From positions 64,001 through 128,000 of IMG/VR virus record IMGVR_UViG_3300015615_000196: a stretch of 64,000 nt of DNA; one strand, written 5' to 3'. Under the pieces are notes generated by a model. That model did no database searches. It saw only the letters and a list, made by a program, of their open reading frames with translations, and had not been told where the DNA came from. This document shows, one piece after another, positions 16,859 to 39,122 of this stretch (its first letter is position 1; every line of letters starts with the position of its first letter). A program made the translations under genes and the position numbers. This stretch comes from a virus. Lineage: Duplodnaviria > Caudoviricetes.

Positions 16859-16940
16859 TGGGAGCAGTAGGACTCGAACCTACGAAGCCCGGAGGCGACA
16901 GATTTACAGTCTGTTGTAATTGCCGCTATACGATACTCCC
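16859..16940 (-). tRNA. tRNA-Tyr(GTA)
   Basis: Cloverleaf; ACAGA-CTGTAAA-TCTGT; long variable arm. Confidence 0.92.
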
Positions 16941-16946
16941 AACGGT

Positions 16947-17318
16947 TTATCGCAGTTCAACCTCAGCACCAGCATTCAACAACTGGTTCTTGATGTTCTC
17001 TGCATTCTCTTTCGAGACACCTTCCGAAATTACTTTTGGCGCACCGTCCACAAGGTCTTTCGATTCCTTCAAGCCGATGTTAAGAAGGTCTTTCACCAAC
17101 TTAACGATTTGAAGTTTGTTTGCACCTGCTGATTTAAGAACGATGTCAAAATTTGACTTTTCTGCTGGTACATAGTCCCCATCACCCGGTGGATGATAAA
17201 TTGGTGCTGCGACTGATTGCTCAATCCCATACGTCTCCTTTAAATACTCTGCAAGTTCTTTTACCTCTTTGACAGAGAGATTCACAAGTTGATCACCGAG
17301 TGCTTTTACATCTTTCAT
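16947..17318 (-). CDS. rplL: 50S ribosomal protein L7/L12 (bL12)
   Basis: LSVKEVKELAEYLKETYGI N-domain; FDIVLKSAGANKLQIVKLVK..GLKESKDLVDGAP..GAEVELR C-domain. Confidence 0.95.
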   Translation of the reverse strand: MKDVKALGDQLVNLSVKEVKELAEYLKETYGIEQSVAAPIYHPPGDGDYVPAEKSNFDIVLKSAGANKLQIVKLVKDLLNIGLKESKDLVDGAPKVISEGVSKENAENIKNQLLNAGAEVELR

Positions 17319-17959
17319 ACAGTTACAAGTTTTACGTCCTTCATTTCTGATTCAAACAAAGATACGTCTTTTTTTCTTAATCTTTCAAACCAGTCATCGG
17401 TTTTGATTTTACAGTAGTACAATTCAGGTCTCCCTTTCTTCGTTACTGAAACACCCTTACAGATGACTCCTTCCGTCAAGTTGAATTCGTTGGCTTTTAC
17501 TCGCGCAACCAATTCCTTATTTAAGTTTCCTTCATACACCACTCGCGGTATTCCAACCGATCCGAAATCCTTGACGAAATCTCTCGGTGGTACAAATCCG
17601 TTTTTGTATTGATCAACGTCAAAAAGAACGATGTCAAATTCATCGTTACCAAATTCGTGCTGACCAAATGCTGACTTCGTTCCAACCAGTTCAGCGTAGC
17701 AAACGAAACTCAAAATATTTCTGTACTCCCGTGATCGAAATATCTTGGAGAGAGATTCGTTGTACTTGTTCATGAACAAATCAATTGCGAATCCGAACTC
17801 GGAATTTTTGTCGATCATTTGTTTCCGAGTACCGAACTTGTAGAAGCCACGCTTGTGCGAGTATTCAAATCGCAAGTTCGATCCATCCAATTTATCAAAT
17901 GCAACTATTGGTAGTCCCCAATAATCACCGTAGTACTCAATACTATCGTACTGTTTCAT
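17315..17959 (-). CDS. RNA ligase-like nucleotidyltransferase (Rnl2-type)
   Basis: KLDGSN, YAE, LFDV, EGVICK, KIKT motifs; true start MKQYDS at 17959 (upstream part of track ORF is a tRNA). Confidence 0.78.
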   Translation of the reverse strand: MKQYDSIEYYGDYWGLPIVAFDKLDGSNLRFEYSHKRGFYKFGTRKQMIDKNSEFGFAIDLFMNKYNESLSKIFRSREYRNILSFVCYAELVGTKSAFGQHEFGNDEFDIVLFDVDQYKNGFVPPRDFVKDFGSVGIPRVVYEGNLNKELVARVKANEFNLTEGVICKGVSVTKKGRPELYYCKIKTDDWFERLRKKDVSLFESEMKDVKLVTV

Positions 17960-17968
17960 AAATAAAGT

Positions 17969-18054
17969 TGGTGGGCAGGGAGGGATTCGAACCCCCGAAC
18001 TCCGAAGAGGACGCATTTACAGTGCGTTGCCGTTAACCACTTGGCTACCTACCC
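17969..18054 (-). tRNA. tRNA-Tyr(GTA), CCA encoded
   Basis: ACGCA-CTGTAAA-TGCGT; long variable arm. Confidence 0.93.
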
Positions 18055-18061
18055 ATTGATG

Positions 18062-18133
18062 TACCCTCGGAGAGATTCGAACTCTCGACTCGCTGATTAA
18101 GAGTCAGCTACTCTACCACTGAGTTACGAAGGT
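18062..18133 (-). tRNA. tRNA-Lys(CTT)
   Basis: GCTGA-CTCTTAA-TCAGC. Confidence 0.92.
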
Positions 18134-18138
18134 ATCTG

Positions 18139-18211
18139 TTCCCCTGTTTGGAATCGAACCAAACCCCACTGATTAAGAGTCAGTTGCCTACAGCCAGTTT
18201 GCTACAGAGGA
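18139..18211 (-). tRNA. tRNA-Lys(CTT)
   Basis: ACTGA-CTCTTAA-TCAGT. Confidence 0.88.
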
Positions 18212-18218
18212 ATATAAG

Positions 18219-18365
18219 TGGGATAGAGGGGAATTGCACCAATCGAAAGCCACAGCTAAATCTTTATGTACAATATTACAAATAGCCTAATCTTTCTTTT
18301 ATTTACCTTAGCCTTTTGAGCACCGTCTTCATGACGGCTCCGTTCATTTCACGAAAAGCTATCCC
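18219..18365 (-). ncRNA. 147-nt tRNA-like RNA with large insertion (possible aberrant Ser-TGA)
   Basis: Acceptor GGGATAG/CTATCCC-A, GCCGT-CATGAAG-ACGGT hairpin, weak T-arm GGTGCAATTCC. Confidence 0.5.
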
Positions 18366-18449
18366 ATATTTCAAAGAACGTGGGGATTGTACTGTGGCGA
18401 TTTCTCGATCTGACTGAACAGATTGCACATACTACTTCGTCCCCGAAAG

Positions 18450-18522
18450 TACCCCCATTTGGAATCGAACCAAACCCTTCTGGTTAAAAGCCAGAAGCCC
18501 ACGACCAGTCTGCTATGGAGGC
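18450..18522 (-). tRNA. tRNA-Lys(TTT)
   Basis: TCTGG-CTTTTAA-CCAGA. Confidence 0.88.
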
Positions 18523-18531
18523 ATAACTGTG

Positions 18532-18604
18532 TGTCCCCGGAGAGGTTCGAACTCTCGACTCCCACATTAAAAGTGTGGTACTCTACCAACTGAGTTACAG
18601 AGAC
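18532..18604 (-). tRNA. tRNA-Lys(TTT)
   Basis: CCACA-CTTTTAA-TGTGG. Confidence 0.92.
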
Positions 18605-18621
18605 TTTATTTAAGTTTTCTG

Positions 18622-18709
18622 TGCACCCGGTGGGAATCGAACCCACTTTATGCTTGCGCCTTTATTGATTAAAAGTCAATTGCCTCAATCTCCGGTCGGC
18701 CACGAGTGC
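18622..18709 (-). tRNA. tRNA-Lys(TTT) with atypical long variable arm
   Basis: ATTGA-CTTTTAA-TCAAT then 17-nt variable region, canonical T-arm. Confidence 0.78.
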
Positions 18710-18805
18710 AGAGTTTTATCATCCACTCCCGTGTACGGGGTGGAGACTAAGGTTTTCGTTTCAATCTTAAAGCGTAATACATAAAATGTTCGTTCAAATG
18801 TTCTG

Positions 18806-18876
18806 TGGGTTAGGAGGGATTCGAACCCTCGTGCCTACGTTTTACAGACGTTGCCCAATGCCCCGTTGTCCAACCC
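18806..18876 (-). tRNA. tRNA-Tyr(GTA), atypical short variable loop
   Basis: ACGT-CTGTAAA-ACGT; GAGGG-TTCGAAT-CCCTC T-arm. Confidence 0.75.
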
Positions 18877-18880
18877 GTAT

Positions 18881-18915
18881 AAAATAAAAAACCCGATCTT
18901 TTTCAGGGATCGGGT
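18881..18915 (-). terminator. attenuator terminator of Lys/Tyr tRNA array
   Basis: ACCCGATC-N9-GATCGGGT-TTTTTATTTT. Confidence 0.88.
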
Positions 18916-18941
18916 ATGTTCATATTGTTATGAAATGTCAA

Positions 18942-19007
18942 TTACATACTTTTTCCCTGTCTACTGAAAGACTTCTTATAGGTTTTATATGAATATGACT
19001 TTTTCAT
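18942..19007 (-). CDS. leader peptide MKKSYSYKTYKKSFSRQGKSM (Lys/Tyr sensor)
   Basis: 21-aa ORF between promoter and terminator; its 3' end is complementary to the terminator 5' arm. Confidence 0.82.
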   Translation of the reverse strand: MKKSYSYKTYKKSFSRQGKSM

Positions 19008-19027
19008 TGTCGTTGTCAATTGTGGTA

Positions 19028-19066
19028 CAAATGTACACTTAAATACGGGGAAGTCAAGAAAAGGTT
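19028..19066 (-). promoter_or_regulatory. tandem AAC-N16-CGT and TAnnTTTG promoters for leader 1
   Basis: GCAACCTTTTCTTGACTTCCCCGTATTTA...TACATTTG. Confidence 0.65.
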
Positions 19067-19281
19067 GCGAAAATTTCTGTCTTTTTTTCCTCAGTAGGTT
19101 TGTTGAAGAACCGTTCGTACTCTCTTATGGAACCTCTGAGCCTTCCTAAAGGACACGGAAGTATCGGGTAACACACCCAATATTCCAGCATTTTTTAAAT
19201 TCTGATTGGCTTGCGCCAGTGCATCTTGAAGGTGTACGATTTGCTCACCGAGTTTATACACCTGCATTTCTCTCAAGTTTC

Positions 19282-19986
19282 TCATATGTCAAAATTGAAT
19301 CCACCTTTTTTCAATTGTTCGTATTTTTCTTTGTTGAACTGGAAGATGATCGCTCGTCTTCCGATGTGACCAGATGTTTTCTTTCTTGTGTTTCGAAGAA
19401 GGTTGTATCCGTTGATCTTCTTCATGAAGTTTCTTCGATCAAGACCTTCTCCAAGAATCGCTTCATAAAGTGCAAAGAGATCACTCATGGTAAATTCTTC
19501 CGGCAAGAGATCAAATCCAATCGGCTCATACTTAATCTTGTTCTGCAATCTTTCGAAAGCATAGGCCATGATCTTGTAATGATCAAATGCAAATTGCAGT
19601 TTGAGGGTGTCTTTGAGTGGGAACCACTTTACTTCTTTTGCATGAAGATTCGGTGACAGAGAATGATTCTCTGGATTGATCAACACGTAGTATGAGATTG
19701 AAATGATTCTTTCTCGTGGATCACGTTTCACATCCGTGAACGTGTAGAGTTGTTCAAGGTACGTGAGATCGATGTTGGTTTCTTCTTTAAGTTTTCGGAT
19801 GACTGCTTTCTCAGCATTCTCCGTGTCCTCAATGAAACCACCGGGTAACGCCCACTTGTTGAGGTACGGCTCAAATGCTCTCTTGATCAAGAGGACATTC
19901 AGCTTCTTCTCAATGTAAGCAAAAACTATCGCGTCAACAGTAACCTTCATTTTCAACAAATTTATCAATTTTTCCTTGAATTCCAA
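19282..19986 (-). CDS. nrtR: NrtR-family Nudix + wHTH regulator
   Basis: WALPGGF, EQLYTF..RDPRER, LAF-like FAFDH, FTMSDL...DRRNF. Confidence 0.88.
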   Translation of the reverse strand: MEFKEKLINLLKMKVTVDAIVFAYIEKKLNVLLIKRAFEPYLNKWALPGGFIEDTENAEKAVIRKLKEETNIDLTYLEQLYTFTDVKRDPRERIISISYYVLINPENHSLSPNLHAKEVKWFPLKDTLKLQFAFDHYKIMAYAFERLQNKIKYEPIGFDLLPEEFTMSDLFALYEAILGEGLDRRNFMKKINGYNLLRNTRKKTSGHIGRRAIIFQFNKEKYEQLKKGGFNFDI

Positions 19987-20389
19987 AGTACTTTTTTATC
20001 GGTAACCAGTCGGTTTCCGCATCGAAACCTGCCTTGTCTTCAAACAGTACGTTGAAGTACGGCTTGTCTTCGTAGTACCCGTAGGTTGTGTTTTTCACAT
20101 CGGGGTTGTTGTTCACGTACTCGAACAGAATACCATGTGAAGCAAAGAAGCCCATATAACGGTCGATCTCCTTCGGATATGAACAGGTAAAGAGTGCAAT
20201 CGTCACGTCCTTACGTCTTGAAAGGTATTGCAGTACTTCCTTGGCGTGAGGATAGAACTTCAACGGATCAGCGTTATTGTAATCCGGGTAGAGGATCGTT
20301 TCGTGAATATCAAAGTAGAAATATACTTTGTCCCATCCACGCTTCTGCATGTTCTTGAATGTCTTGTCGATTGCTTTGAGTACGCTCAT
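19934..20389 (-). CDS. HAD-like hypothetical protein
   Basis: FDIHETIL, LFTCS, KPYFNVLFEDKAGF. Confidence 0.6.
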   Translation of the reverse strand: MSVLKAIDKTFKNMQKRGWDKVYFYFDIHETILYPDYNNADPLKFYPHAKEVLQYLSRRKDVTIALFTCSYPKEIDRYMGFFASHGILFEYVNNNPDVKNTTYGYYEDKPYFNVLFEDKAGFDAETDWLPIKKYFGIQGKIDKFVENEGYC

Positions 20390-21297
20390 TGTGTCAAAAT
20401 TGTTTTAAGTGCTTTATGGAATTCTCCTGCTACTTCAACTTCTTTGAAGCCGATGTAGCTTTTTGCTTGCTCTGGATATGGCAATGTATTTGTTGTATAC
20501 ACAAACGGTGTATGAGGGCATACAGCAAACTTAGTCACTGCAACACCAGAAAACAAACCGTGTGCAGCAAAAACATATACGTTTTTCGCTCCGTTTTCTT
20601 TTAGGGTATCGATTGCTTTCAGGATCGTTCCACCTGTGTCGATCATGTCGTCCACAAGAATTACATCACAATCAGTAACGTCTCCTATCAAGGTCATCTT
20701 CTCAACCTTGTTTGCTTCCTTTCTTTCCTTGTCGATTATCGCGAAACCACAACCTAATGCCTGTGCATATTTCTTTGCACGTTTCATTCCACCCAAGTCA
20801 GGAGAAATGATTTTCGGGTTCTTGAGATCGATGGCTTTGATTTCATCAACCAGCAATCCCATTGGATCGAGATTGTAGAATGGTATCTTGTAGAACCCTT
20901 CAATGGCTGTTGTGTGAACATCCATTGTAACCAGTCGATCAAGACCAGCTACTTGAAGCATATCAGCAAGCAAACGTGCTGAGATCGTAGTCCTAACCTT
21001 TTCTTCTCTGCGTTCCTGACGAGAGTGTGGAAGGTATGGGATAATGCCAATGATCTCCCGTGCACTTGCTCTACGAGCAGCGTCAATGGTTTCAAGAAGT
21101 TCGAAAATGTCTTCATACGTTCTTGGTTGTGACACAACCACAATCGATTCATTACGAACCGATTCTTCAATGACAACGGTGATCTCACCATTGGCAAATT
21201 TGGTTTTGTGAATTTGACCAAGAGTATATCCAGCATTACACTTTACAAGTTTCTTGGTGAATTCTTCGCTGTTCGATTGTGGGAATATCTTTACCAT
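20386..21297 (-). CDS. prs: ribose-phosphate pyrophosphokinase (Prs/Adps-like)
   Basis: FANGE, PYLPHSRQ, MDVH, SPDLGG, VDDMIDTGGT. Confidence 0.92.
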   Translation of the reverse strand: MVKIFPQSNSEEFTKKLVKCNAGYTLGQIHKTKFANGEITVVIEESVRNESIVVVSQPRTYEDIFELLETIDAARRASAREIIGIIPYLPHSRQERREEKVRTTISARLLADMLQVAGLDRLVTMDVHTTAIEGFYKIPFYNLDPMGLLVDEIKAIDLKNPKIISPDLGGMKRAKKYAQALGCGFAIIDKERKEANKVEKMTLIGDVTDCDVILVDDMIDTGGTILKAIDTLKENGAKNVYVFAAHGLFSGVAVTKFAVCPHTPFVYTTNTLPYPEQAKSYIGFKEVEVAGEFHKALKTILTQ

Positions 21298-21299
21298 GA

Positions 21300-21581
21300 T
21301 TACATGAATTTAATGACTTTCAAAATTTGTTCGTAGGACATTTCGTTTAGCATGTTCTCGGCTTTCTCCAAGTACTGCCTTCTTGACGATCCCGGATTCT
21401 TCCAGCTTTCGTAAAACCAACCACACTGGTCTTCGTGTGCCCAATGACATTGTTTCTCGTGCAAGAGTTCTGCAACCCTTTGTACTTCTGTCAAACCATT
21501 GAAAGCAACTCTCTGTGCTTTCAAATCTCGAATTTGTTTTTCGAGTTCAAGGATTTTGTCGTCAATATCAAAAATCTTCAT
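21300..21581 (-). CDS. hypothetical protein
   Basis: 93-aa ORF in operon. Confidence 0.55.
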   Translation of the reverse strand: MKIFDIDDKILELEKQIRDLKAQRVAFNGLTEVQRVAELLHEKQCHWAHEDQCGWFYESWKNPGSSRRQYLEKAENMLNEMSYEQILKVIKFM

Positions 21582-21604
21582 AACCGTAAGTTTAAAGAAG
21601 TGGC

Positions 21605-23245
21605 TTACGCAGCCACTTCTTGATGTTGATACTTATTCAGCAATGCTTCTCTTGTGTCGAGTACGAACTTGCTTGCAGGGTAGTTCTTGTTCTCTGCGGT
21701 TTCGAGAGAATTCGGCATCGAATTGAATTGCTCTTTAATTCTTGCCTTTATCGTCAAGAAATCATCATCTTGACCTACACCATATGGTTCTTCAATTCGA
21801 GCACCGTTGAAGTACTCAACCATTGCGTTCTCGCCTTCTTCATTTGCGTTCACGATGGTTTCTTTGTTTGCAATGGCTTCGGCAGAACGAAGAACTTTGA
21901 ATGGGCCGGGTAATGTGGTCTTACCCACTTCACCGAATTTAACCACTGGCTTGTCATCAGTTCCAACTGCACAAAGTGCGTATTTGGCAGAAAGGTTGTC
22001 GCGTTTCAGTGCGTTTCTCAAACCACCACCAACACCGAACAATCCCCATGAGTAAGGCATGAAACCTCTTTCGATCATTGCATCGATGATGGTTTTCATT
22101 TCACCGAAGGTCATACCGTCCCCTTCAATGAAGTGGAGAGTAGTAGCGAATTTCCATTCTTTACCTGCAATTACTTTGGTTGTAAACAAACCATTGTCCA
22201 CTGCAAGTTGGCAAGTCCAAAGAACTTGTTCAAGTGCATCACCAGAGTCAGGACGAGCAACTACGATCTTGCCGTTGTTTTCGGCAACGCTACGCTTTGC
22301 AAGCGGGAGGTGATAGTTCTTTACTGCATAGAAGTAATCGTAGCAGTCACCAACCATTGAAACAAGTTCATCGTTAGCAGATGCTTCGTAGATTGCAGTG
22401 TAGCAATCACCTTCGAATTCGTATGATTGAACGTTTCTGTGTGCAAGTGCATTCACAGAAGAGAAAATTCCAGTCGTGTCTTTTCCTTCACTGTTCTTGT
22501 ATGCTTGGTATGCACCAGCAAACGTGTCAGTTCCACCGAAGGTGTACAGGTGAACCATTCCGAGCATTTCTGATTCCTCAGCAACGATACCAGCACGATC
22601 ACCAAAGTCGTGAAGCATGATACTGGCAAAGAAGTCAGCTTCGGCATCACTCAATTCAGGATTGATTCTCTTGAAGGTACTCTTCAAGTATGCAAACCAG
22701 TGTTGATTTTGCGTTACACGCTCACTTGCTGCCCATACGTGCAAAAGTTTGCTTTCAAACCATGCACCAAGTACACCAACTTGTTCTTCGGTCAAACCGA
22801 CACTGGTAACTTGAATTACGGGTTCGTTCGGGTATACCACGCTACCTTCCGGCATGGCAAGGATTTGAATCGGAGGACGACCGTTGTATTTGTCAACAAC
22901 CAATCTCCACAGTTCTTCCGGCACATAGAATCTCTTGAATCCTTTGGTAGTGACTTTCGCCATCTTCAAGAATTCAATTGCTTCATCGATCTCAGCATGT
23001 GTGATCGGTTCGTAGAACAGTTTATCCAGAATTGGTTGCAGACCATTGAAAATGATCTTGTCATTTCCCTTCACATAAAGTTCAGGGTTGATCGATGCCA
23101 ATCGTCTGCGGAAGGTAATGTAGTAGGTCGATTTATCTTTTGCATCTTGGCTTTCGAATGGATTTGAACCAATCGTGTATGCGTCTGCAACTAAAAGTCT
23201 CGGAGTTTTGTGGACTCTGCGCTTGGGTAATTTAACGGTTTTCAT
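21605..23245 (-). CDS. nadV: nicotinamide phosphoribosyltransferase (NadV/NAMPT-like)
   Basis: DAY, PEGS, LHDFGDRA, GTDT, DCYD, RPDSGD, EGDG, FGVGGGL. Confidence 0.88.
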   Translation of the reverse strand: MKTVKLPKRRVHKTPRLLVADAYTIGSNPFESQDAKDKSTYYITFRRRLASINPELYVKGNDKIIFNGLQPILDKLFYEPITHAEIDEAIEFLKMAKVTTKGFKRFYVPEELWRLVVDKYNGRPPIQILAMPEGSVVYPNEPVIQVTSVGLTEEQVGVLGAWFESKLLHVWAASERVTQNQHWFAYLKSTFKRINPELSDAEADFFASIMLHDFGDRAGIVAEESEMLGMVHLYTFGGTDTFAGAYQAYKNSEGKDTTGIFSSVNALAHRNVQSYEFEGDCYTAIYEASANDELVSMVGDCYDYFYAVKNYHLPLAKRSVAENNGKIVVARPDSGDALEQVLWTCQLAVDNGLFTTKVIAGKEWKFATTLHFIEGDGMTFGEMKTIIDAMIERGFMPYSWGLFGVGGGLRNALKRDNLSAKYALCAVGTDDKPVVKFGEVGKTTLPGPFKVLRSAEAIANKETIVNANEEGENAMVEYFNGARIEEPYGVGQDDDFLTIKARIKEQFNSMPNSLETAENKNYPASKFVLDTREALLNKYQHQEVAA

Positions 23246-23269
23246 ATCAGTAAGTGTTTATTGTAATTG

Positions 23270-24184
23270 TTATTTCGTGAGTTTGTGCTTCAAGAGTGCA
23301 AGCAAATGTTGATGTTCCCCAACTACTTCGGTAGCGTTGAGTGTCTTCACATTGAACCAACGTACTTCTGTGATGTCATCATTTGCTTTTTCTGAACCAC
23401 CACCGAAAACTTTCTTTGCTTTGAAGAACGTAGTCATGATTGATCTTCCGTTTTCCGAACGGTATCTCCAATCTTTTACTTTTGCCGAAGCGATGTACTG
23501 GATGTCATCGATTTCAACACCAGTTTCTTCGTATGCTTCTCTGCGAACAGTTTGTTCGAGACTTTCATCTGCAACATCAGCGAAACCACCAATGAAACGG
23601 AATTCAACTTCGTCTTTCTTACGGCCAAGCAGAACCTGACTTTCGTCTTCATTCATGATGGCTACATCGATTGTCGGGTGAACGAAGTCGTAGGTATTGT
23701 AGCAAGCGTAGATTACACCAGCACGAAATTCTTTGATACGTTCCACCTTCTTTGAAACCGACTTTCTGATTTCGGTAGCAGACACCATTGATTGTGGAAC
23801 AAGTTCGTTTACATCAAATTTGCCGTGATAGTGAGGGATGAATGAATCGCGTGATCCGTAAAGAACGACTGAACCAAGTGGAAATACTTCTCTGATCTTG
23901 GTATCAACTTGTGCTGACCATACGTTGTCTGATTTCTTGTCGTGTAACGGAAGAATCATTGAGATTTTGTTTCCGTAGACTTCTTCAAACATTACCTTTC
24001 TTGACATGAAGTCAAGTGGATTTGTTTTTGTTGAGAGTGTGGGTGATACCCCTAAGAAAAGGAGAACCCTTTCGTGGCGACTGATAACTTCATCGATCAG
24101 TGCCTTGTGTGCTTCGTGGAGTTCATGGATTTGAAAACGTCCGATGATGACTCCGATGTCGTATTTTTTCTTTAAGTCTTCCAT
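23270..24184 (-). CDS. nadM: bifunctional NMN adenylyltransferase / ADP-ribose Nudix hydrolase
   Basis: GRFQIHELHEAH, NPL, SATEIR; Nudix GGFAD...RREAYEETG, ANDD. Confidence 0.9.
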   Translation of the reverse strand: MEDLKKKYDIGVIIGRFQIHELHEAHKALIDEVISRHERVLLFLGVSPTLSTKTNPLDFMSRKVMFEEVYGNKISMILPLHDKKSDNVWSAQVDTKIREVFPLGSVVLYGSRDSFIPHYHGKFDVNELVPQSMVSATEIRKSVSKKVERIKEFRAGVIYACYNTYDFVHPTIDVAIMNEDESQVLLGRKKDEVEFRFIGGFADVADESLEQTVRREAYEETGVEIDDIQYIASAKVKDWRYRSENGRSIMTTFFKAKKVFGGGSEKANDDITEVRWFNVKTLNATEVVGEHQHLLALLKHKLTK

Positions 24185-24185
24185 A

Positions 24186-30492: not shown

Positions 30493-30576
30493 GATGGTAT
30501 ACGTATGTACTGCAATATACGTAAATTCATCAGAAAAGTTATTCCAAGACGAAAATTAACATTCTGATTTGAGTAG

Positions 30577-30650
30577 TACCCCGTGAGAGAATCGAACTCC
30601 CGACCTTCTGTTTGTAAGACAGACGTTCTAAACCACTGAACTAACGGGGC
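30577..30650 (-). tRNA. tRNA-Val(TAC)
   Basis: TCTGT-CTTACAA-ACAGA. Confidence 0.92.
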
Positions 30651-30874
30651 ATCTTTTTTCTTTCTTCCATCAACTGTGCCATGAAATCTGCAATGTCTCG
30701 AAGACAAGTTTTTTCAAAGACAGTATGTTCTGCCGGATAAAAAGAATATTGTCGAAATGAACCAAACCAACGTACAGTGCCGAGAACTACACCGTTCTCT
30801 TTATTCTGTACCACAAACACTTTTGTTTTCCTATCAGGAAAATCTTGTTCGATGAATTCAATCCATTTAGCCAT
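30641..30874 (-). CDS. hypothetical protein within tRNA array
   Basis: RKTKVFVV...WFGSFRQYSF...CLRDI. Confidence 0.6.
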   Translation of the reverse strand: MAKWIEFIEQDFPDRKTKVFVVQNKENGVVLGTVRWFGSFRQYSFYPAEHTVFEKTCLRDIADFMAQLMEERKKMPR

Positions 30875-30877
30875 ATG

Positions 30878-30950
30878 TAGTCCGGGTGGGACTCGAACCC
30901 ACGATAGCTGCTTTGTAGGAGCAGTGCTTTTGCCACTAAGCTACCAGACT
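30878..30950 (-). tRNA. tRNA-Val(TAC), C33 variant
   Basis: CTGCT-CCTACAA-AGCAG. Confidence 0.85.
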
Positions 30951-31049
30951 ATGTAACAGCATACTTCATTCAGAGCCGTCAATCAAGACGATCCCAAGCG
31001 GGAGCCGAGTCCGTTTAAGAAGTTTCCAGCTTTACGCAAACTGTTATTG

Positions 31050-31120
31050 TACCCGATGAAAGAATCGAACTTTCGTACTTCGCATGTCAAACGAATACTC
31101 TTCCATTGAGTTAATCGGGC
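31050..31120 (-). tRNA. tRNA-Val(GAC)
   Basis: TTCGT-TTGACAT-GCGAA. Confidence 0.88.
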
Positions 31121-31125
31121 ATATG

Positions 31126-31210
31126 CGGTGAATTAAGGACTCGAACCTCGCCTCCCTTTTTGCGCTTAGGGTATGCTACCTATCCCGAAGGACAATTACA
31201 CTAAATCACC
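31126..31210 (-). ncRNA. atypical tRNA-like RNA (hairpin inserted in D-loop, no clear anticodon)
   Basis: GGTGATT/ATTCACC acceptor, GGTTCGAGTCC T-loop, TGTCC-TTCG-GGATA insert. Confidence 0.5.
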
Positions 31211-31279
31211 ATTTGGAACAATCGAAACTGTTCGAACTACTTTGACTACGTGTCTAAGTTGTTCCGATTATTTCCGTTG

Positions 31280-31352
31280 TAGCGGGTGTGGGACTTGCAC
31301 CACACGACCTCAAGGTTATGAGCCTTGCGAGATACTACTTCTCCAACCCGCG
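31280..31352 (-). tRNA. tRNA-Met(CAT), initiator-like
   Basis: CGCGGGT 5' end with 1:72 mismatch; CAAGG-CTCATAA-CCTTG. Confidence 0.85.
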
Positions 31353-31429
31353 ATATAATGTTGTCTTTCCAACTGCCAATAGTCTCAATTCTGTACGTCA
31401 TTCAGGTAGAGCACTACACCACCTTATTG

Positions 31430-31520
31430 TAGCGGGGGTGGGAATCGAACCCACGAGGTCAATTTTTTTAGACACAAGGTTATGAGCCTTGACTGCTACC
31501 GTCTACAGGGCTACCCCGCG
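31430..31520 (-). tRNA. tRNA-Met(CAT), initiator-like with long variable arm
   Basis: CGCGGGG 5' end; CAAGG-CTCATAA-CCTTG; ~20-nt variable region. Confidence 0.72.
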
Positions 31521-31761
31521 ATATAATTTTAATGACTTCACTTTTCTTTCCACACTTGTGACAAACATATTGAAATTCACTCCAACGTTTCTCTGTGAAA
31601 ATATTTCTGAATTCAACTCTTCCTAATGGTGTGTAAATCATTGGTAGATTACAATCAACACATTTCATTGAATCTCCCGCAGGAGTTATCGTCAATGGAA
31701 TGTAAGGTATAAACCAATATCCACAAGAAAAAATTTCTTTCAATGTGAAACCTTTCATAGT

Positions 31762-31839
31762 ATCGACAAGGGGAATCGAACCTCCGGCCACTTCCAAAGA
31801 AACAGAAGCCACAAGCACCACTTGTGTATTGATTGTCGA
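31762..31839 (-). ncRNA. degenerate tRNA-like element
   Basis: TCGACAA/TTGTCGA stem, GGTTCGATTCC loop, irregular anticodon arm. Confidence 0.4.
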
Positions 31840-31841
31840 AG

Positions 31842-31913
31842 TAGCGATACACAGAATCGAACTGTGGTTTTCCCCTTATGAGAGGGACGTACTGGCCGTT
31901 GTACTATATCGCT
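31842..31913 (-). tRNA. tRNA-CAT (Met or Ile2)
   Basis: TCCCT-CTCATAA-GGGGA. Confidence 0.85.
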
Positions 31914-32024
31914 ATATATCTCCGTTGCCGGAGAATATGTTTAATGTTCTTTTGGTGTTGTCTCACCAGCACTACCTTTTACGTTACCGTGATCCGTAGA
32001 GATCACGCAACCTTTTCTCAGGGG

Positions 32025-32282
32025 TTAATCGATTAAGATTAACTGTCTTTTCCGAAGCCTCGGCAAATCCATACGAAACCTATGTTCGTTGGCCTTGATC
32101 TTGGCATCAGCTAATGTCATCGCCTTCACATAAAAATTCAGAACATCACTCTCCTTAGAGGTTAGTTCAACCATCCAATAATGGATGGGTTCTCGGTACA
32201 CGACATGAGAGGGCTGAGGCAGTCTGACATCCAGACTCGGAATTACCCACCTCTTGTCGTCTTCTCTACTTGCGTAGTTCAT
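32025..32282 (-). CDS. hypothetical protein
   Basis: 85-aa ORF. Confidence 0.45.
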   Translation of the reverse strand: MNYASREDDKRWVIPSLDVRLPQPSHVVYREPIHYWMVELTSKESDVLNFYVKAMTLADAKIKANEHRFRMDLPRLRKRQLILID

Positions 32283-32388
32283 ACTCCATAATTGCTACCA
32301 AGACAAGCAATTAGGAGGTGTTTTGATTTTTAATCATACACGAAATTAAGAATAAAATTATTCAAACCAAAATGTCAAAGAACTATCG

Positions 32389-32462
32389 TCATCCGTAGGG
32401 GAATCGAACCCCTATTTACGCAGTGAAAGTGCGTTGTCCTTATTCCGTTAGACGAACGGACG
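32389..32462 (-). tRNA. tRNA-Glu(TTC)
   Basis: ACGCA-CTTTCAC-TGCGT. Confidence 0.9.
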
Positions 32463-32472
32463 ATAATTTCTG

Positions 32473-32545
32473 TAGCACGTAGGGGAATCGAACCCCTGTT
32501 CCCACATTGAAAGTGTGGTGTCCTTGACCGTTAGACGAACGTGCC
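32473..32545 (-). tRNA. tRNA-Glu(TTC)
   Basis: CCACA-CTTTCAA-TGTGG. Confidence 0.92.
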
Positions 32546-32558
32546 ATATATTTTAAAG

Positions 32559-32644
32559 TACCTATGGTGGGACTCGAACCCACACGCCCATTACTGAGCA
32601 CCAGATTTTAAGTCTGGCGTGTCTACCAATTCCACCACAAAGGC
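32559..32644 (-). tRNA. tRNA-Leu(TAA)
   Basis: CCAGA-CTTAAAA-TCTGG, long variable arm. Confidence 0.92.
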
Positions 32645-33021
32645 ATGTTGCCTGTTGTGATGTCACATAATCGACACTTATTTTTTGTTGCTTCTGTCAT
32701 ACTGTTCCAATTTATGTTTTGCTTCATTGATCAATGTTGTTTGATGCGCAACGTTTATTTCTTTTTGATTTGAACTTTTCTTCGTCAATGCATCCGTCAA
32801 TTCTTGTTCGAGAGTTGCAACTCTCTCGACTAACTTCTCTCTTTTTTTATCAATTTTTCCCATTTAATTTTTCTTTTATATCAGCTATCATTTCTTCGAC
32901 ATCGAAATCCTCAATCAAGTCCATTTGATCGTAGCCTTCTTTTGAGGTGTACACCACAAAGTCTCCGGCTTTAATCAAACAACCTTCTTCGGTCACTATG
33001 TCTCCGAACAGTTTACTCATG

Positions 33022-33093
33022 TGGAGGTATAGGGAATCGAACCCTAATTTCCTGATTGCAAGTCAGGCGTAATCGCCCTTATACGATACCCCC
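33022..33093 (-). tRNA. tRNA-Ala(TGC)
   Basis: CCTGA-CTTGCAA-TCAGG; G3:U70. Confidence 0.92.
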
Positions 33094-33423
33094 ATACTTC
33101 TTTCTTCTAATCGAGTCATCCAACTCTTTCAAGAAAGATTCTGGTAATTCTATCTTCCTCTGCTCGAACTCATTCAAAATTTCTTGCTTTGAAAAAAGTC
33201 CTTCGCCAATTCCACTACTCCATTCTTTCACCCACAAACCCCAACCTTTTTTTGAAGTGATTACTCCCTTCACAATGTTTGGGTGTCTTGTCTTCATCGT
33301 CTCTCTGAATTTGAAAACTCCGTTTTCGTAATCATTGAAACAACTCTTCCCATCTACTCCGTTCACATCCAATTCCACATTCACACTCGAACCACAGAAT
33401 GTAATTATTCCTGTTCGATACAT
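33079..33423 (-). CDS. hypothetical protein
   Basis: 114-aa ORF inside array. Confidence 0.5.
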   Translation of the reverse strand: MYRTGIITFCGSSVNVELDVNGVDGKSCFNDYENGVFKFRETMKTRHPNIVKGVITSKKGWGLWVKEWSSGIGEGLFSKQEILNEFEQRKIELPESFLKELDDSIRRKKYGGIV

Positions 33424-33520
33424 TCTCAGAAACAGTTCAAACTTTTTGTTGAACTTTTCGGAGAACGGTCTTTTGCGTCCATGCGGTAATTAGTCTTCAT
33501 AACTTAACCCTCATTTTATG

Positions 33521-33602
33521 TAGCCCAAGTAGGAGTCGAACCTACACGCCTTTCGGCACTCGCTTTTGAGACGAGCACGTCTACCAATTCCATCATTGGG
33601 CC
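33521..33602 (-). tRNA. tRNA-Leu(CAA)
   Basis: CTCGT-CTCAAAA-GCGAG. Confidence 0.92.
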
Positions 33603-33607
33603 ATATG

Positions 33608-33679
33608 CGGTCTATGCGAGAATCGAACTCGCAGCACCACCGTGACAGGGTGGGATGTTAGCCATTACACCAATAGACC
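33608..33679 (-). tRNA. tRNA-Asp(GTC)
   Basis: CCACC-CTGTCAC-GGTGG. Confidence 0.92.
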
Positions 33680-33739
33680 GTAGTAGTATCACTTATATAG
33701 ACGCTTCTCTTTTGAAGAACGATACTGTGCGCCATTGTG

Positions 33740-33811
33740 CAGTCCCTACGGGAATCGAACCCGCTTCTCCGGGGTGACAACCCGGCATACATACCAACGT
33801 ACCCAAGGACT
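33740..33811 (-). tRNA. tRNA-Asp(GTC)
   Basis: CCGGG-TTGTCAC-CCCGG. Confidence 0.85.
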
Positions 33812-33826
33812 ATATTGTATTCGTTT

Positions 33827-33984
33827 TACCCCCGGCAGGACTCGAACCTGCAATCCCTTACATTTCTTCTTGCTGTGTATTGGGATGTCCGGTTACGGTT
33901 CGTGAGCAAGAGCATTGGGGCAGTCAACCTTTCAGCAATCCTATTGAACTTGGCCAGATGTGTATACCAATTCCACCACAGGGC
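33827..33984 (-). ncRNA. tRNA-Leu-like RNA with ~80-nt insertion in place of the anticodon arm
   Basis: Leu-type D-arm GGTGGAATTGGTATACAC, T-arm GCAGG-TTCGAGT-CCTGC. Confidence 0.55.
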
Positions 33985-34067
33985 GAATACAAATTGAAAC
34001 TGTTGATGACGGTCAACACTAAGCCCCTCAATGCCTCTATGAGGACTGAGCACATTTCAATGTCATT

Positions 34068-34154
34068 GTAACAGCACCGGATGCATTAGACCACTATACG
34101 ACCTACCCCGAAGGGCAGGGTGGGATTCGAACCCACGTCCTCCGGTGCTACTAC
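34068..34154 (-). ncRNA. circularly permuted tRNA-like (YrlA-like) RNA
   Basis: Order: T-arm, acceptor stem closed by TTCG, D-arm, all enclosed by a 14-bp stem. Confidence 0.72.
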
Positions 34155-34172
34155 TTCAATATTTCAAAGAAC

Positions 34173-34451
34173 TTACTTGCCTTCTGCAAGCAGTTGGTCA
34201 ATGTAACCCATCGGACTTGTACCCGGAGGTAGCATTACGATGTTCTTGAACCCATTCTCTTTGGTGATGATTGATTCACTTTCATGAATCGCTCCTTTAT
34301 GTTTCTCACCGTAAGTTCCGGTCATGAGTTTCTTCGAAGCAGGATCAACATCACCCCATTCTGCATGGTGCGAAGAACTATTGTCGATAGGTTCAACGCA
34401 GAAGGTTCTACCTTCTTTTGTCGTCACATAAAATCTTCCAGTTTTACTCAT
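34173..34451 (-). CDS. hypothetical protein, first gene after attenuator 2
   Basis: GRFYV..GRTFCVEPI..WGDVDP..GAI. Confidence 0.65.
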   Translation of the reverse strand: MSKTGRFYVTTKEGRTFCVEPIDNSSSHHAEWGDVDPASKKLMTGTYGEKHKGAIHESESIITKENGFKNIVMLPPGTSPMGYIDQLLAEGK

Positions 34452-34476: not shown

Positions 34477-34507
34477 AAAACAAAAAACCCGACTTTGTGG
34501 GTCGGGT
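34477..34507 (-). terminator. attenuator terminator of Asp/Leu/Ala/Glu/Met/Val array
   Basis: ACCCGAC-CCACAAA-GTCGGGT-TTTTTGTTTT. Confidence 0.88.
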
Positions 34508-34526
34508 CTTTCGAGTTTGATATTCT

Positions 34527-34646
34527 TTAGTATCCAATATCTTCATCTTCCTCTTTAGACCCAACAATAGCGTCATCCTCCACCATAGCCAACGCTACGA
34601 CAGATTCCATCGCTAAAGTTTCTAAAGATAATATTGAAGTTTTCAT
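34527..34646 (-). CDS. leader peptide MKTSILSLETLAMESVVALAMVEDDAIVGSKEEDEDIGY
   Basis: 39-aa ORF between promoter and terminator; contains GTTGGGTCT complementary to the terminator 5' arm. Confidence 0.78.
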   Translation of the reverse strand: MKTSILSLETLAMESVVALAMVEDDAIVGSKEEDEDIGY

Positions 34647-34741
34647 TTTCTGCTTTTTTTGAGTTTAATGTCTCTGACTCATAAATACGATACAAAGGTA
34701 TAAAAGGTTGCGTTCCCTCCAAACTTTTTTTCAAATATTTT

Positions 34742-35765: not shown

Positions 35766-35771
35766 AATGCC

Positions 35772-36272: not shown

Positions 36273-36316
36273 TATGAAAGTGATTTCTTTATAAATACGA
36301 AGTTTTTCTCGTATTT

Positions 36317-37126
36317 ATGGTTAAAGCTGCCGTTATGCAAAAAAGAACTTTACAGGATATGTTCGAGAAGGTCAATGGTATCAAATTAACCGAAGGTTGG
36401 TTTGGTCAGGGTAATAAAACCCCGGCTCCAATGCAAGGCACTCAACTCAAAACAGCACCTGTTTTCAATTACCAACAGAAATATCAGGAGGTAATGAAAG
36501 GTTTGAACAAGATGGCAAAGCAATACATCCGTTATTTCGTTGCCGATGTAACTGGTGACAATCACGTCTGGTCAAACGATTTTGATTCGTGGATCGCCAT
36601 TGCAGTAAAGAAGGTTCTTGCAAATCCTGCTCAGTTTGCCCAAATTCTACACAAATACCCTCAAGTGGAAGATGCAGTAAAGATGGTTACCGCAGCCGAT
36701 CAAGTTAATCCCCCTGCCGTTGCCGAAAACGTAGAAGGTACTCCTGCTACTAAAGAACATGCATTGGGTTATCTCTCCGACCTTTACAAAGATGTCTACG
36801 GTACAAGACCAAACTTGAGCAGATATAGAAGTATGTCCGATGCTGAGGTATGGCAAGAAATTCAGAACCTTGAGAAACAAGCTGGTGAAGAAGCAGATCA
36901 GGAAGCAGTGTACGATCAACAAAATCTTGCTAAGTTTGAAGCACTGATTCAGAAGACTATTGAACACGGTGCTGGTGATAGAGAAACAGCATTACGTTGG
37001 TTGTACGATTCAGATGATGACCAGTATGATGCATCATACTTCTTGTATAAGCACCACGTCAACACTCATTCACCGGAGGGCAGAAAACTCCAACAGGAAT
37101 TGGATAACGCCATCCTGAAAAAATAA
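36317..37126 (+). CDS. hypothetical (possibly virion) protein
   Basis: SDLYKDVYGTRP...GAGDRETALRW; LTE motif near N-terminus. Confidence 0.6.
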   Translation: MVKAAVMQKRTLQDMFEKVNGIKLTEGWFGQGNKTPAPMQGTQLKTAPVFNYQQKYQEVMKGLNKMAKQYIRYFVADVTGDNHVWSNDFDSWIAIAVKKVLANPAQFAQILHKYPQVEDAVKMVTAADQVNPPAVAENVEGTPATKEHALGYLSDLYKDVYGTRPNLSRYRSMSDAEVWQEIQNLEKQAGEEADQEAVYDQQNLAKFEALIQKTIEHGAGDRETALRWLYDSDDDQYDASYFLYKHHVNTHSPEGRKLQQELDNAILKK

Positions 37127-37139
37127 TTGAAATTTTCGT

Positions 37140-37180
37140 AACCTTTATTTGGAGATTACGTATTTAAGGATATATCTTTG
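37140..37180 (+). promoter_or_regulatory. tandem AAC-N16-CGT and TAnnTTTG promoters for leader 3
   Basis: AACCTTTATTTGGAGATTACGTATTTA...TATCTTTG. Confidence 0.65.
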
Positions 37181-37213
37181 TGACACAAAAGCAGAGAGAA
37201 AAGTAAAAAGACA

Positions 37214-37297
37214 ATGAAAAAGATCGTAAACGTAGTTCCGCAACCCCAACATCAGCCACAAAACCTGTTGCTTGGGGATACTATGATCGTATCTTAA
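37214..37297 (+). CDS. leader peptide MKKIVNVVPQPQHQPQNLLLGDTMIVS (Pro/Gln/His sensor)
   Basis: 27-aa ORF; CCG CAA CCC CAA CAT CAG CCA CAA run; GCTTGGGG complementary to the terminator arm. Confidence 0.85.
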   Translation: MKKIVNVVPQPQHQPQNLLLGDTMIVS

Positions 37298-37317
37298 CTG
37301 TCGAAAAAGACATTTAG

Positions 37318-37355
37318 AAAACCCCCAAGCGTAAAGTTTGGGGGTTTTTTGTTTT
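37318..37355 (+). terminator. attenuator terminator of Pro/His/Gln array
   Basis: ACCCCCAAGC-GTAAA-GTTTGGGGGT-TTTTTGTTTT. Confidence 0.9.
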
Positions 37356-37359
37356 CTAT

Positions 37360-37434
37360 CGGGATGCGATCCATTAGGTGTGGTTACGTGTTTTGGAAAC
37401 ATGGTTATTGCTGGTTCGAGTCCAGTCATCCCGA
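37360..37434 (+). tRNA. tRNA-Pro(TGG)
   Basis: CGTGT-TTTGGAA-ACATG; CGGGATG/CATCCCG. Confidence 0.82.
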
Positions 37435-37495
37435 CCCGATGTAGACCGTTCGCACTGCAAAGACTGGTTCGCCAGATGCGTAGAAGTGCAAGTAT

Positions 37496-37569
37496 CGAGA
37501 GTGTGGTGTAATTGGATAAACACACTACAATCGGAATGTAGAGTTACGGTTCGAGTCCGGCACTCTCGA
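37496..37569 (+). tRNA. tRNA-Pro(CGG), 8-bp acceptor variant
   Basis: CTACA-ATCGGAA-TGTAG. Confidence 0.78.
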
Positions 37570-37618
37570 CAATTTTTCTTTAAAAGTATTTATTGGAAAC
37601 ATTAAACAAGTTTCCGAT

Positions 37619-37966
37619 ATGACAAGAGAAGAAAAACAGGTATACGATAGACGATGGTATGCTGAAAACAAAGACAGGTTAAAAGCCGAAAAAAACAAAA
37701 GAGGACGTGAAACACGGAGAAGAAACAGTAATTATATTACTGAATATTTGAAAAAACATCCTTGTGTTGATTGTGGTGAAAATGATCCAATCGTATTAGA
37801 ATTCGATCACATCGCAAAGAAAACAAAGAGTATTTCAGATATGATTCGTGGTGCATTTTCTCTTGAGACGATTAAAAATGAAATCAAAAAATGCGAAGTT
37901 AGATGTGCTAATTGTCATCGAAAGAAAACAGCAAAGCAATTTAACTGGCATCGTAACAGAGTGTAG
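37619..37966 (+). CDS. HNH endonuclease
   Basis: PCVDCG...LEFDH...KCEVRCANCHR. Confidence 0.85.
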   Translation: MTREEKQVYDRRWYAENKDRLKAEKNKRGRETRRRNSNYITEYLKKHPCVDCGENDPIVLEFDHIAKKTKSISDMIRGAFSLETIKNEIKKCEVRCANCHRKKTAKQFNWHRNRV

Positions 37967-38029
37967 TTCAGTTGGTAGAACGCTACATTTGGGATGTAGA
38001 GGCCGAGAGTTCGAGTCCCTCCACTCTGA
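37957..38029 (+). tRNA. tRNA-Pro(TGG)
   Basis: CTACA-TTTGGGA-TGTAG. Confidence 0.92.
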
Positions 38030-38224
38030 CTATGAAGTTCTTTGATGTAGTAGAAATTGGTGATAGTGTAATGGATGGAAAAGTTGTTGAGACAATAACG
38101 AACAAAACATCCAACTCTATCGAAGTTACCAGAACGGCTCGTTCGAAAAATGGTGTGGATTGTAAACAGTGGTTTACGATGAAAGATTTTGAAGATTCTT
38201 TTAAACCTTTAAATCAAACACACT

Positions 38225-38452
38225 ATGAACAAGAAAGAGTTAAAATGGAAAACGGAAATCTTGGAAAGAATTCCGAAGATGACCAATGAGGAAGTACTGG
38301 ATCAGTACTCGTATCTCTGCGGAGGTGATGACTACGATGGTTGCATGACTGATCGTGGACAATGGGAATTCGAAAAGATCACTGACGAATTGAGCAAACG
38401 CTTAATCGCCTGTGGATTTTTGAAGGAACACATTAATGCAGGAATGCATTAA
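38225..38452 (+). CDS. hypothetical protein
   Basis: 75-aa ORF in array. Confidence 0.5.
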   Translation: MNKKELKWKTEILERIPKMTNEEVLDQYSYLCGGDDYDGCMTDRGQWEFEKITDELSKRLIACGFLKEHINAGMH

Positions 38453-38458
38453 TGAAAT

Positions 38459-38533
38459 GGGTTAGGTAGCATAATTGGTTAATGCCCTTGACTGTGGATC
38501 AAGTGTATGCGGGTTCGAGACCCGTCCTAACCC
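38459..38533 (+). tRNA. tRNA-His(GTG)
   Basis: G-1/C73; CTTGA-CTGTGGA-TCAAG. Confidence 0.92.
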
Positions 38534-38552
38534 CTTAACGTACTTTGAAATT

Positions 38553-38774
38553 ATGGCACACAAAAAAACAACCGTACCGAAAGTTGAAGCTAAAGTAGTT
38601 TCGCTTACGATCCTTTGTCCAACATTGAACAAAGAAGTTATCGTTACCAGTGATTATTCTTTTTCAGGATATGAAGCAGAATGTGAACTGTGTGGATCGC
38701 ACGGTGAAGTGAAGGTGTGTATAATGAAATGTGAATGCGGTAAGACGCATGACATTCAACTTAGTTCTTGGTAA
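38553..38774 (+). CDS. small Cys-rich hypothetical protein
   Basis: CELCGSH...CECGKTH. Confidence 0.55.
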   Translation: MAHKKTTVPKVEAKVVSLTILCPTLNKEVIVTSDYSFSGYEAECELCGSHGEVKVCIMKCECGKTHDIQLSSW

Positions 38775-38816
38775 CTAACTTAGTAACTAAGAAATATCGG
38801 ACATGTCCGATAAAAT

Positions 38817-38889
38817 TGTCCTCTGGTGTAATTGGCAACACGCCTGACTTTGAATCAGGAGAGTTCAGGTTCGACCCCTGAGAGGACAA
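38817..38889 (+). tRNA. tRNA-Gln(TTG)
   Basis: CCTGA-CTTTGAA-TCAGG. Confidence 0.92.
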
Positions 38890-38890
38890 C

Positions 38891-38962
38891 TGCCGAATAG
38901 TATAATGGCGATTATTTCTGGCTCTGAACCAGAGGATGTGAGTTCGATTCTCACTTCGGTAT
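38891..38962 (+). tRNA. tRNA-Gln(CTG)
   Basis: TCTGG-CTCTGAA-CCAGA. Confidence 0.9.
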
Positions 38963-38968
38963 CTACAT

Positions 38969-39041
38969 GGTGTTTGTGTTGTAGTGGCTAACATACCAAA
39001 CTGTGAATTTGGAGAAGACGGATCGAAACCGTCCTTACACC
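38969..39041 (+). tRNA. tRNA-His(GTG)
   Basis: CCAAA-CTGTGAA-TTTGG. Confidence 0.82.
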
Positions 39042-39049
39042 CACTTGAT

Positions 39050-39122
39050 TGCTGAGTAGTATAATGGTTCATTACTGCCGCCTTTGAAGCGGAGGATGAA
39101 GGTTCGATTCCTTCCTCAGCGA
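39050..39122 (+). tRNA. tRNA-Gln(TTG)
   Basis: CCGC-CTTTGAA-GCGG. Confidence 0.88.

Follow-up and report, generated by a model that had tools for sequence, protein, structure and literature searches.

The viral record IMGVR_UViG_3300015615_000196 of IMG/VR is a complete virus of 362,603 bp with direct terminal repeats, a GC content of 40.5% and 61 tRNAs according to ARAGORN. Bases 64,001–128,000 of this record, a stretch of 64,000 nucleotides (nt) referred to here as the window, contain 29 tRNAs (ARAGORN) grouped in three arrays. Each array is preceded by a leader open reading frame (ORF) with a TAnnTTTG box upstream, and a GC hairpin plus U-tract begins 20–27 nt after the leader. These cassettes, together with a fourth of the same layout situated just before the window, are the subject of this study. 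Very probably, each array forms an operon controlled by ribosome-mediated transcription attenuation of the trp/his type, which would sense the supply of the array's own tRNAs.

Cassette 1, on the minus strand, opens with the phage motif CGTATTTA (19040–19047), the core of which also lies before portal and other structural-region genes and appears late-promoter-like, followed by the promoter box (19028–19035), which is of the Bacteroidota sigma-A −7 type. Its leader (18942–19007) encodes 21 amino acids (aa), with Lys/Tyr sensor codons at positions 2–12, AAA and AAG both being present. The predicted antiterminator strand (18944–18959) pairs with 18919–18904, i.e. the terminator 5′ arm and its flanks. 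The intrinsic terminator (18885–18915) has a U-tract that starts 15 nt before the first tRNA, and array 1 (16858–18876) comprises five tRNA-Lys (three UUU and two CUU) and three tRNA-Tyr.

Cassette 2, also on the minus strand, has its TAnnTTTG box at 34693–34700 and the CGTATTTA motif at 34689–34682. The 39-aa leader (34527–34646) displays Leu/Glu/Ala/Met/Val/Asp sensor codons at positions 6–26. It has no Trp codon, and its four Leu codons are all of the UUR type (TTA or TTG), fitting the tRNA-Leu(UAA) and tRNA-Leu(CAA) of the array. A predicted antiterminator strand (34557–34565) forms 9 bp with the 5′ arm of the terminator (34481–34513), and array 2 (30576–33811) contains two Asp, two Leu (CAA and UAA), one Ala, two Glu, three CAU and three Val tRNAs. 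Cassette 3 lies on the plus strand, with a promoter region at 37159–37180 (CGTATTTA at 37159–37166 and TAnnTTTG at 37173–37180), a 27-aa leader (37214–37297) in which eight Pro/Gln/His codons stand in a row at positions 9–16, a predicted antiterminator strand (37270–37277) of 8 bp with the terminator 5′ arm, an intrinsic terminator (37315–37351) and array 3 (37359–39123; three Pro, two His and three Gln). Leader starts are A-rich and devoid of a Shine–Dalgarno motif. The GTATTTA motif is found at all four leaders and, since it also precedes portal and other structural-region genes, suggests that the arrays are transcribed both early and late.

The composition of the leaders follows that of the arrays. 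With Leu, Ser and Arg counted by codon box, cognate codons make up 9/20 in leader 1 (expected fraction 0.12, p = 2.6e-4), 24/38 in leader 2 (0.31, p = 4.8e-5) and 8/26 in leader 3 (0.09, p = 1.2e-3), and among 20,000 base shuffles these counts are matched 48, 0 and 236 times, respectively. Cassette 4, which had not been seen when the idea was formed, provides an out-of-sample test. Its leader of 42 codons (genome C1 61730–61602, L001:9603–9731, minus strand) is followed by a terminator and then by array 4 (genome C1 61542–53816, L001:1817–9543, minus strand), whose 28 tRNAs cover Trp, Phe, Thr, Arg, Ile, Ser, Asn, Gly, Leu-CUN and Cys. Leader 4 has 36/41 cognate codons (expected fraction 0.48, p = 1.1e-7), a count reached by none of 20,000 shuffles, and the true assignment of the four leaders to the four arrays is the best of the 24 possible. 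Between them, the four arrays supply tRNAs for all 20 amino acids. Leu is divided by codon box, the sensor part of leader 4 having CTA and CTC and array 4 having tRNA-Leu(UAG) and tRNA-Leu(AAG). At the scale of the genome, 31 terminators were found and five of them are preceded by a short ORF whose start context is good; a promoter box together with a short ORF occurs at only 4/31, and these are the four tRNA cassettes.

Most of what the sequence-only reading had proposed for the window is borne out by these data. The three arrays have the tRNA content it gave, the common order of promoter, leader ORF of 21–39 aa, hairpin with U-tract and tRNAs recurs at all three places, and the leader codons mirror the arrays (p ≤ 1.2e-3 in each case). 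Its statement that the tRNAs for one amino acid are never split between arrays holds inside the window and fails genome-wide, Leu being split between arrays 2 and 4; orphan Gln and Leu tRNAs also exist outside the arrays.

Further evidence comes from relatives. Related capsids are encoded by 146 IMG/VR stretches, of which 80 (70–91% identity) were kept, and relative loci were gathered by terminator pattern, neighbouring gene and capsid synteny. A finder that picks the ORF by its start context alone returned 69 distinct cassettes with leaders of 18–48 aa, a TAnnTTTG box upstream in 58/69 (background 3.6%) and Lys as second residue in 51/69. Permutation and metagene tests omit three of them, namely two with merged arrays (inner cassette missed) and one Lys/Tyr leader with uncalled tRNAs. 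Cognate codons account for 994 of the 1,933 leader codons (51%) in 62 cassettes found on 33 other contigs, compared with 460 ± 38 (24%) for shuffled pairings (z = 14). The covariation of leader codons with downstream anticodons that the sequence-only reading had suggested looking for thus exists, and the true pairing comes out on top in each of the 17 contigs holding two or more cassettes. All 23 codon families are enriched in these 62 cassettes, from 1.6- to 14.8-fold, and sensor regions contain a codon for 343 of the 356 tRNA families present in the arrays.

Pooled counts are not the strongest part of this evidence, because most relatives share four ancestral blocks. Rearranged arrays are stronger: G/K/P/Q/T/Y (L055), H/L/S/Y (L058), H/L/P/R/S/T (L121), C/L/V and A/D/E/F (L124), A/D/N/P/Y and F/M/R/S/W (G023), and I/R/T and C/F/G/I/L/N/S (G014). 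Every one of them has its own matching leader (binomial p from 3.6e-2 to 1.7e-6), these leaders are unrelated in sequence while their composition follows the array, and with 23 representatives, mostly rearranged, none of 100,000 permutations reaches the observed score. Single moves leave the same trace. Leaders of the Asp/Glu/Val/Leu/Ala block have one Trp codon in every relative; in the present phage, tRNA-Trp has moved to array 4, and the Trp codon has been lost from leader 2 and gained in leader 4. Likewise, Leu(CUN) codons moved together with the Leu(CUN) tRNAs.

In each window cassette, as the sequence-only reading had it, the leader stop codon is enclosed by a predicted stem between the 3′ part of the leader and the terminator 5′ arm, with folding energies of −15.9, −18.8 and −20.0 kcal/mol for antiterminators 1, 2 and 3. 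An arm-duplex test gives p = 0.005 for each of leaders 2 and 3 and p = 0.21 for leader 1, which misses significance because its antiterminator consists of two 6-bp helices that use the flanks of the arm. Over the 69 cassettes, the leader–arm duplex has a mean energy of −12.5 kcal/mol, shuffled leaders giving −6.1, and it is significant in 58/69 relative to base shuffles and in 37/69 relative to synonymous recoding. Leaders prefer their own arm over those of homologous cassettes in 37/48 comparisons (p = 1.1e-5), and in the Pro/Gln/His class the antiterminator strand, the 5′ arm and the 3′ arm co-vary.

The spacing of these elements fits as well. A ribosome holds ∼11–13 nt counted from its P-site. 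With codons numbered back from where the antiterminator strand begins, an A-site at about −3 is therefore as close as a ribosome can come without occupying any of the strand. On that numbering, codons −6, −5 and −4 have cognate fractions of 0.88, 0.91 and 0.85, and the values fall to 0.62, 0.33 and 0.12 at codons −3, −2 and −1, a drop seen in each of five cassette classes, the rearranged ones included (p ≤ 5e-6). The sensor run therefore ends where ribosome geometry requires. The distance from stop codon to terminator stem is 20–52 nt (median 29; 69 cassettes), and small hairpins near the leader stop codons are candidate polymerase pause sites. Taken together, the sequence displays what characterizes leader-peptide attenuators, namely a leader ORF, cognate codons, a terminator, a predicted mutually exclusive antiterminator and a geometry suited to stalling; a clear pause hairpin is the exception, one being predicted only in cassette 3. 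The trp/his-type interpretation of the earlier reading is thereby supported from four sides: the match in cassette 4, covariation, leader-specific complementarity and footprint spacing.

On these grounds the module is real, conserved and co-evolving, and its operation can be outlined as follows. RNA polymerase would start upstream of the leader, where the promoter motif is seen, and a ribosome would load on the A-rich start and read codons that sample nearly every tRNA family of the array. We infer that the leaders are translated because of their A-rich starts, the frequency of Lys as second residue and the variation of third codon positions, which among homologous leaders are the most variable ones, with a weak effect in the largest class. 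When charged tRNAs are ample, folding predicts that the ribosome would cover the antiterminator strand and that transcription would stop before the first tRNA. When a sampled codon is read slowly, the ribosome would stay three or more codons short of the strand, which could then pair with the 5′ arm of the terminator while the 3′ arm is still untranscribed, and polymerase would continue into the array. A tRNA block is thus probably made only when ribosomes read its codons slowly; the new tRNAs would relieve the stall and close a negative feedback loop. With the genetic code divided among four cassettes, four blocks would be switched separately.

Several observations weigh against this mechanism or limit what can be drawn from it. 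Relatives share ancestry, so that cassette counts overstate the number of independent events, and the Leu(CUN) move may be a single one because it is common to G002 and G014, which group with this phage. Equilibrium folding shows a clear switch only in cassette 1, where the terminator probability is 0.13–0.16 with the ribosome at codons 10–12 and 1.0 from codon 13. With the complete terminator present, it favours termination at essentially every stall position in cassettes 2 and 4, and in cassette 3 the terminator side (−26.3 kcal/mol) outweighs the antiterminator (−20.0). For this reason the model depends on co-transcriptional kinetics: folding of truncated transcripts lets the antiterminator form first in the cassettes other than 1, the boundary of the ribosome mask being assumed in these calculations, so that the resulting curve is not independent evidence. 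Only for cassette 3 does folding predict a 1:2 protector hairpin like that of trp, and with a ribosome at the stop codon the antiterminator is predicted to re-form partly in cassettes 2–4. In addition, leader 2 has five Glu/Asp codons 3′ of the antiterminator strand that would be unable to sense in this model, and promoter-like motifs inside the arrays could bypass the switch.

Could the pattern be fortuitous? The leaders are short, those of the window had been selected by eye, and AT-rich intergenic DNA with an ORF chosen post hoc might yield spurious matches. This explanation is scarcely credible and is refuted by the match in cassette 4, unseen beforehand, and by the permutation tests in relatives (z = 14) on leaders chosen by start context alone; furthermore, in the partial stretches covered, the strict finder returns no A-rich-start cassette at tRNA arrays of other phage groups. 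Alternatives without codon sensing are very unlikely, whether the leaders work through their peptide products, as arrest peptides or small effectors, or the hairpins serve as processing signals or as terminators with constitutive leakage. Homologous leaders do retain short motifs and tRNA operons do need processing signals, but the leaders of rearranged arrays are unrelated in sequence and track the array in composition, and the hairpins have U-tracts and a co-varying competing strand. Somewhat less improbable, yet still unlikely, is a general switch for translation stress or timing, in which the arrays open whenever leader translation fails and the codon match does no more than tune the response. 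It draws on the prediction that untranslated leaders 1, 2 and 4 fold as antiterminators, whereby total translation failure would open the arrays too, on a mean pairing of 0.65 untranslated versus 0.82 stalled (69 cassettes), and on the induction of the Anabaena trn array by general translational stress (PMC8421152). A general sensor, however, needs neither four distinct leaders, nor codon rewriting after tRNA moves, nor a sharp codon boundary, and sensing of general translation stress may rather be an added layer.

What remains to be weighed is the purpose of the switch, a matter that leaves its mechanism untouched. Given the published tRNA-cutting defences, its purpose is likely to be the replacement of tRNAs destroyed or exhausted in infection. 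Host anticodon nucleases are a conjectural trigger, because the switch would respond to any shortage of charged cognate tRNA. Accordingly, amino acid starvation or the demand of late synthesis is a realistic possible trigger, if one to which we give the lesser weight. Classical attenuators answer to charged-tRNA supply (PMC1183508) and a stalled ribosome is blind to the cause of the shortage; all 20 amino acids are sampled, well beyond the published nuclease targets, and a late-promoter-like motif lies upstream of all four leaders. Against starvation, extra tRNA would be no cure for a lack of amino acid. Moreover, the leaders seem to follow tRNA species rather than amino acids: Leu codons track the codon box, as described above for leaders 2 and 4; codons ending in G are somewhat commoner when a C34 isoacceptor is present (35/46 versus 58/108, p = 0.007, kin not being independent); and the variety of synonymous codons exceeds expectation (435 versus 381 ± 7). 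Sensing at the level of tRNA species is favoured by these codon-box and isoacceptor signals. On balance, we lean towards a modular monitor of the whole tRNA pool in giant Bacteroidota-type phages, in which four autoregulatory attenuators would test 20 amino acids at the tRNA-species level and release only the block in short supply, as an inducible counter-defence against tRNA-cutting immunity whose sensor is rewritten as tRNAs move.

The carrier is an uncultured giant T4-like phage. Among its genes are those for a T4-type major capsid protein, a terminase and a portal; its capsid is at most ∼42% identical to those of cultured phages, among which it has no close relative, and a DNA search for close relatives among cultured phages gave single-tRNA matches only. 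We infer a Bacteroidota host from the TAnnTTTG boxes, the scarcity of Shine–Dalgarno motifs and the affinities of a ribosomal protein bL12 encoded in array 1. TAnnTTTG is the consensus of the Bacteroidota sigma-A −7 box (PMC9723704), motifs like Shine–Dalgarno precede only 11/196 long ORFs of this genome, and the nearest bacterial clusters of bL12 are mostly from Bacteroidota. A sigma-70 promoter scan remained at chance level.

Concerning distribution, the three tRNAs of Flavobacterium phage immuto 2-6A are not preceded by a cassette according to the strict finder, and it returned none in partial stretches of Lak-B1, LR756508, LR756511 and other IMG/VR phage arrays. One narrow pattern applied to 185,579 prokaryote genomes gave no chromosomal cassette, which does not imply absence from hosts; the only true match in that scan was a 362,763-bp contig (L332) in a Paceibacterota metagenome-assembled genome, which equals relative G005 in length and has its leader, so that L332 is probably a mis-binned phage genome. 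An exact search for leader 4 in metagenomes found no match, and neither did a scan for the Pro/Gln/His pattern, whose gap range was probably too short. A 61-kb contig (L066) has a single 15-tRNA array with a 27-codon leader (start 4249, minus strand) that covers 12 of 14 tRNA families in its sensor region, and the system may thus extend beyond jumbo phages.

Several passenger genes and odd elements accompany the arrays. Array 1 includes an RNA ligase gene (17315–17959, minus strand; PF09414, phrog_548) and the bL12 gene (16947–17318, minus strand). The ligase was ruled out as a fixed part of the Lys/Tyr cassette, its sole homologue following an Ala/Asp/Glu/Phe array; homologues of bL12 occur within or just after attenuated arrays in three relatives, with a different leader there. 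Three small proteins of no known family (34173–34451, 33079–33423 and 32025–32282, minus strand) recur inside many relatives' attenuated arrays under different leaders, and an HNH endonuclease gene inside array 3 (37619–37966, plus strand), which has its own GTATTTA motif, has homologues in different arrays of relatives. In the region of array 2, a weak match to the Y-RNA-like YrlA family (34053–34163, minus strand; 29.7 bits, E = 0.0016, gathering score 69) was noted, and no TROVE/Ro60 family match was found in the genome. A tRNA-like shell (33820–33990, minus strand) has D-arm and T-arm motifs with a long insert in place of the anticodon arm, and atypical elements resembling it lie at genome positions 59150–59280 and 61330–61470. 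Two of the CAU tRNAs (31279–31353 and 31429–31520, minus strand) have an apparently unpaired, initiator-like 1:72 position, which is paired in the third (31841–31913); one CAU tRNA has a long variable arm. Array 4 has, close to its end, a tRNA-like gene with a CUA anticodon loop (genome C1 ∼54875–54947, L001 ∼2876–2948, minus strand), and in many relatives array 4 ends with a CUA tRNA. This putative amber suppressor has no sensor because leader 4 is without UAG; TAG is the stop codon of 16/250 long ORFs. Upstream of cassette 1 lies a nicotinamide adenine dinucleotide (NAD) salvage cluster (19282–24184, minus strand) with an NrtR-like NUDIX regulator, a phosphoribosyl pyrophosphate (PRPP) synthetase, an enzyme of the NAPRTase/NAMPT family and a NUDIX-domain protein. 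Two adjacent ORFs of equal length (501 aa; 12236–13741 and 14066–15571, plus strand), the first without a Pfam match, are possibly a duplication.

It has long been asked why phages have large sets of tRNAs (PMC10264068). Here, a sensor written in the DNA tells what the phage would monitor, and it implies that tRNA supply fails unpredictably in infection, so that replacement on demand would be favoured over constant codon compensation. With it, attenuation would also reach non-coding tRNA genes, on which it would act as direct feedback. tRNAs placed in one block may be those lost together and are candidate targets of Bacteroidota defences, while the cassettes, 150–200 nt in length, could serve as live-cell reporters of tRNA depletion.

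Among tRNA-based counter-defences, T5 tRNA-Lys counters PARIS AriB (PMC11464382), and tRNA-Tyr and tRNA-Lys of SP15 and T5 counter retron Eco7 PtuAB and PrrC (PMC11555353); phage tRNAs that evade nucleases are also known (PMC10264068). These systems offer a reason for tRNAs on demand, and Lys and Tyr, two published targets, share one cassette here. They differ in that the retron study credits a strong phage promoter and, in the part available, has no sensing leader, and in that the hosts are not Bacteroidota. Two other switches invite comparison. T-box riboswitches (Rfam; TBDB PMC7778990) are likewise tRNA-responsive terminator/antiterminator switches, but they bind uncharged tRNA directly, without a leader ORF, and an Rfam search of the window gave no T-box and no known leader family. 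The nearest regulated tRNA array, the trn L-array of Anabaena PCC 7120 (PMC8421152, PMC10272220), is silent and is switched on under impaired translation; it relies on the DNA-binding repressor TrcR, is not codon-specific and lacks the leader/terminator layout, and the words ‘attenuat’, ‘leader’ and ‘uORF’ are absent from the text of PMC8421152.

The closest likeness is with amino acid attenuators. Those of E. coli trp, his, thr, ilvGMEDA, pheA and pheST have a short leader ORF, regulatory codons, mutually exclusive antiterminator and terminator, and a U-tract, with the sensor codons set ahead of the antiterminator strand by one ribosome footprint. The leaders of thr and ilv each test several amino acids. 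Leader-peptide attenuators of amino acid operons have been modelled (PMC1183508), and such control has been indicated for amino acid operons of Flavobacterium (PMC9723704). The phage cassettes differ in the genes after the terminators, which are tRNAs and passengers, not biosynthetic or synthetase genes, so that the output is the sensed molecule itself. Furthermore, a single leader holds as many as 12 codon families (10 amino acids), the cassettes are phage-encoded, and four switches tile the code. Unlike trp, three of the four show no clear 1:2 protector hairpin, and the untranslated state is predicted to be ON rather than super-attenuated. As the sequence-only reading had supposed, no account of leader-peptide control of tRNA genes was found in the literature searched, which left out most subscription journals. 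Leader-peptide attenuation is a known principle, and what appears to be new here is its control of tRNA genes.

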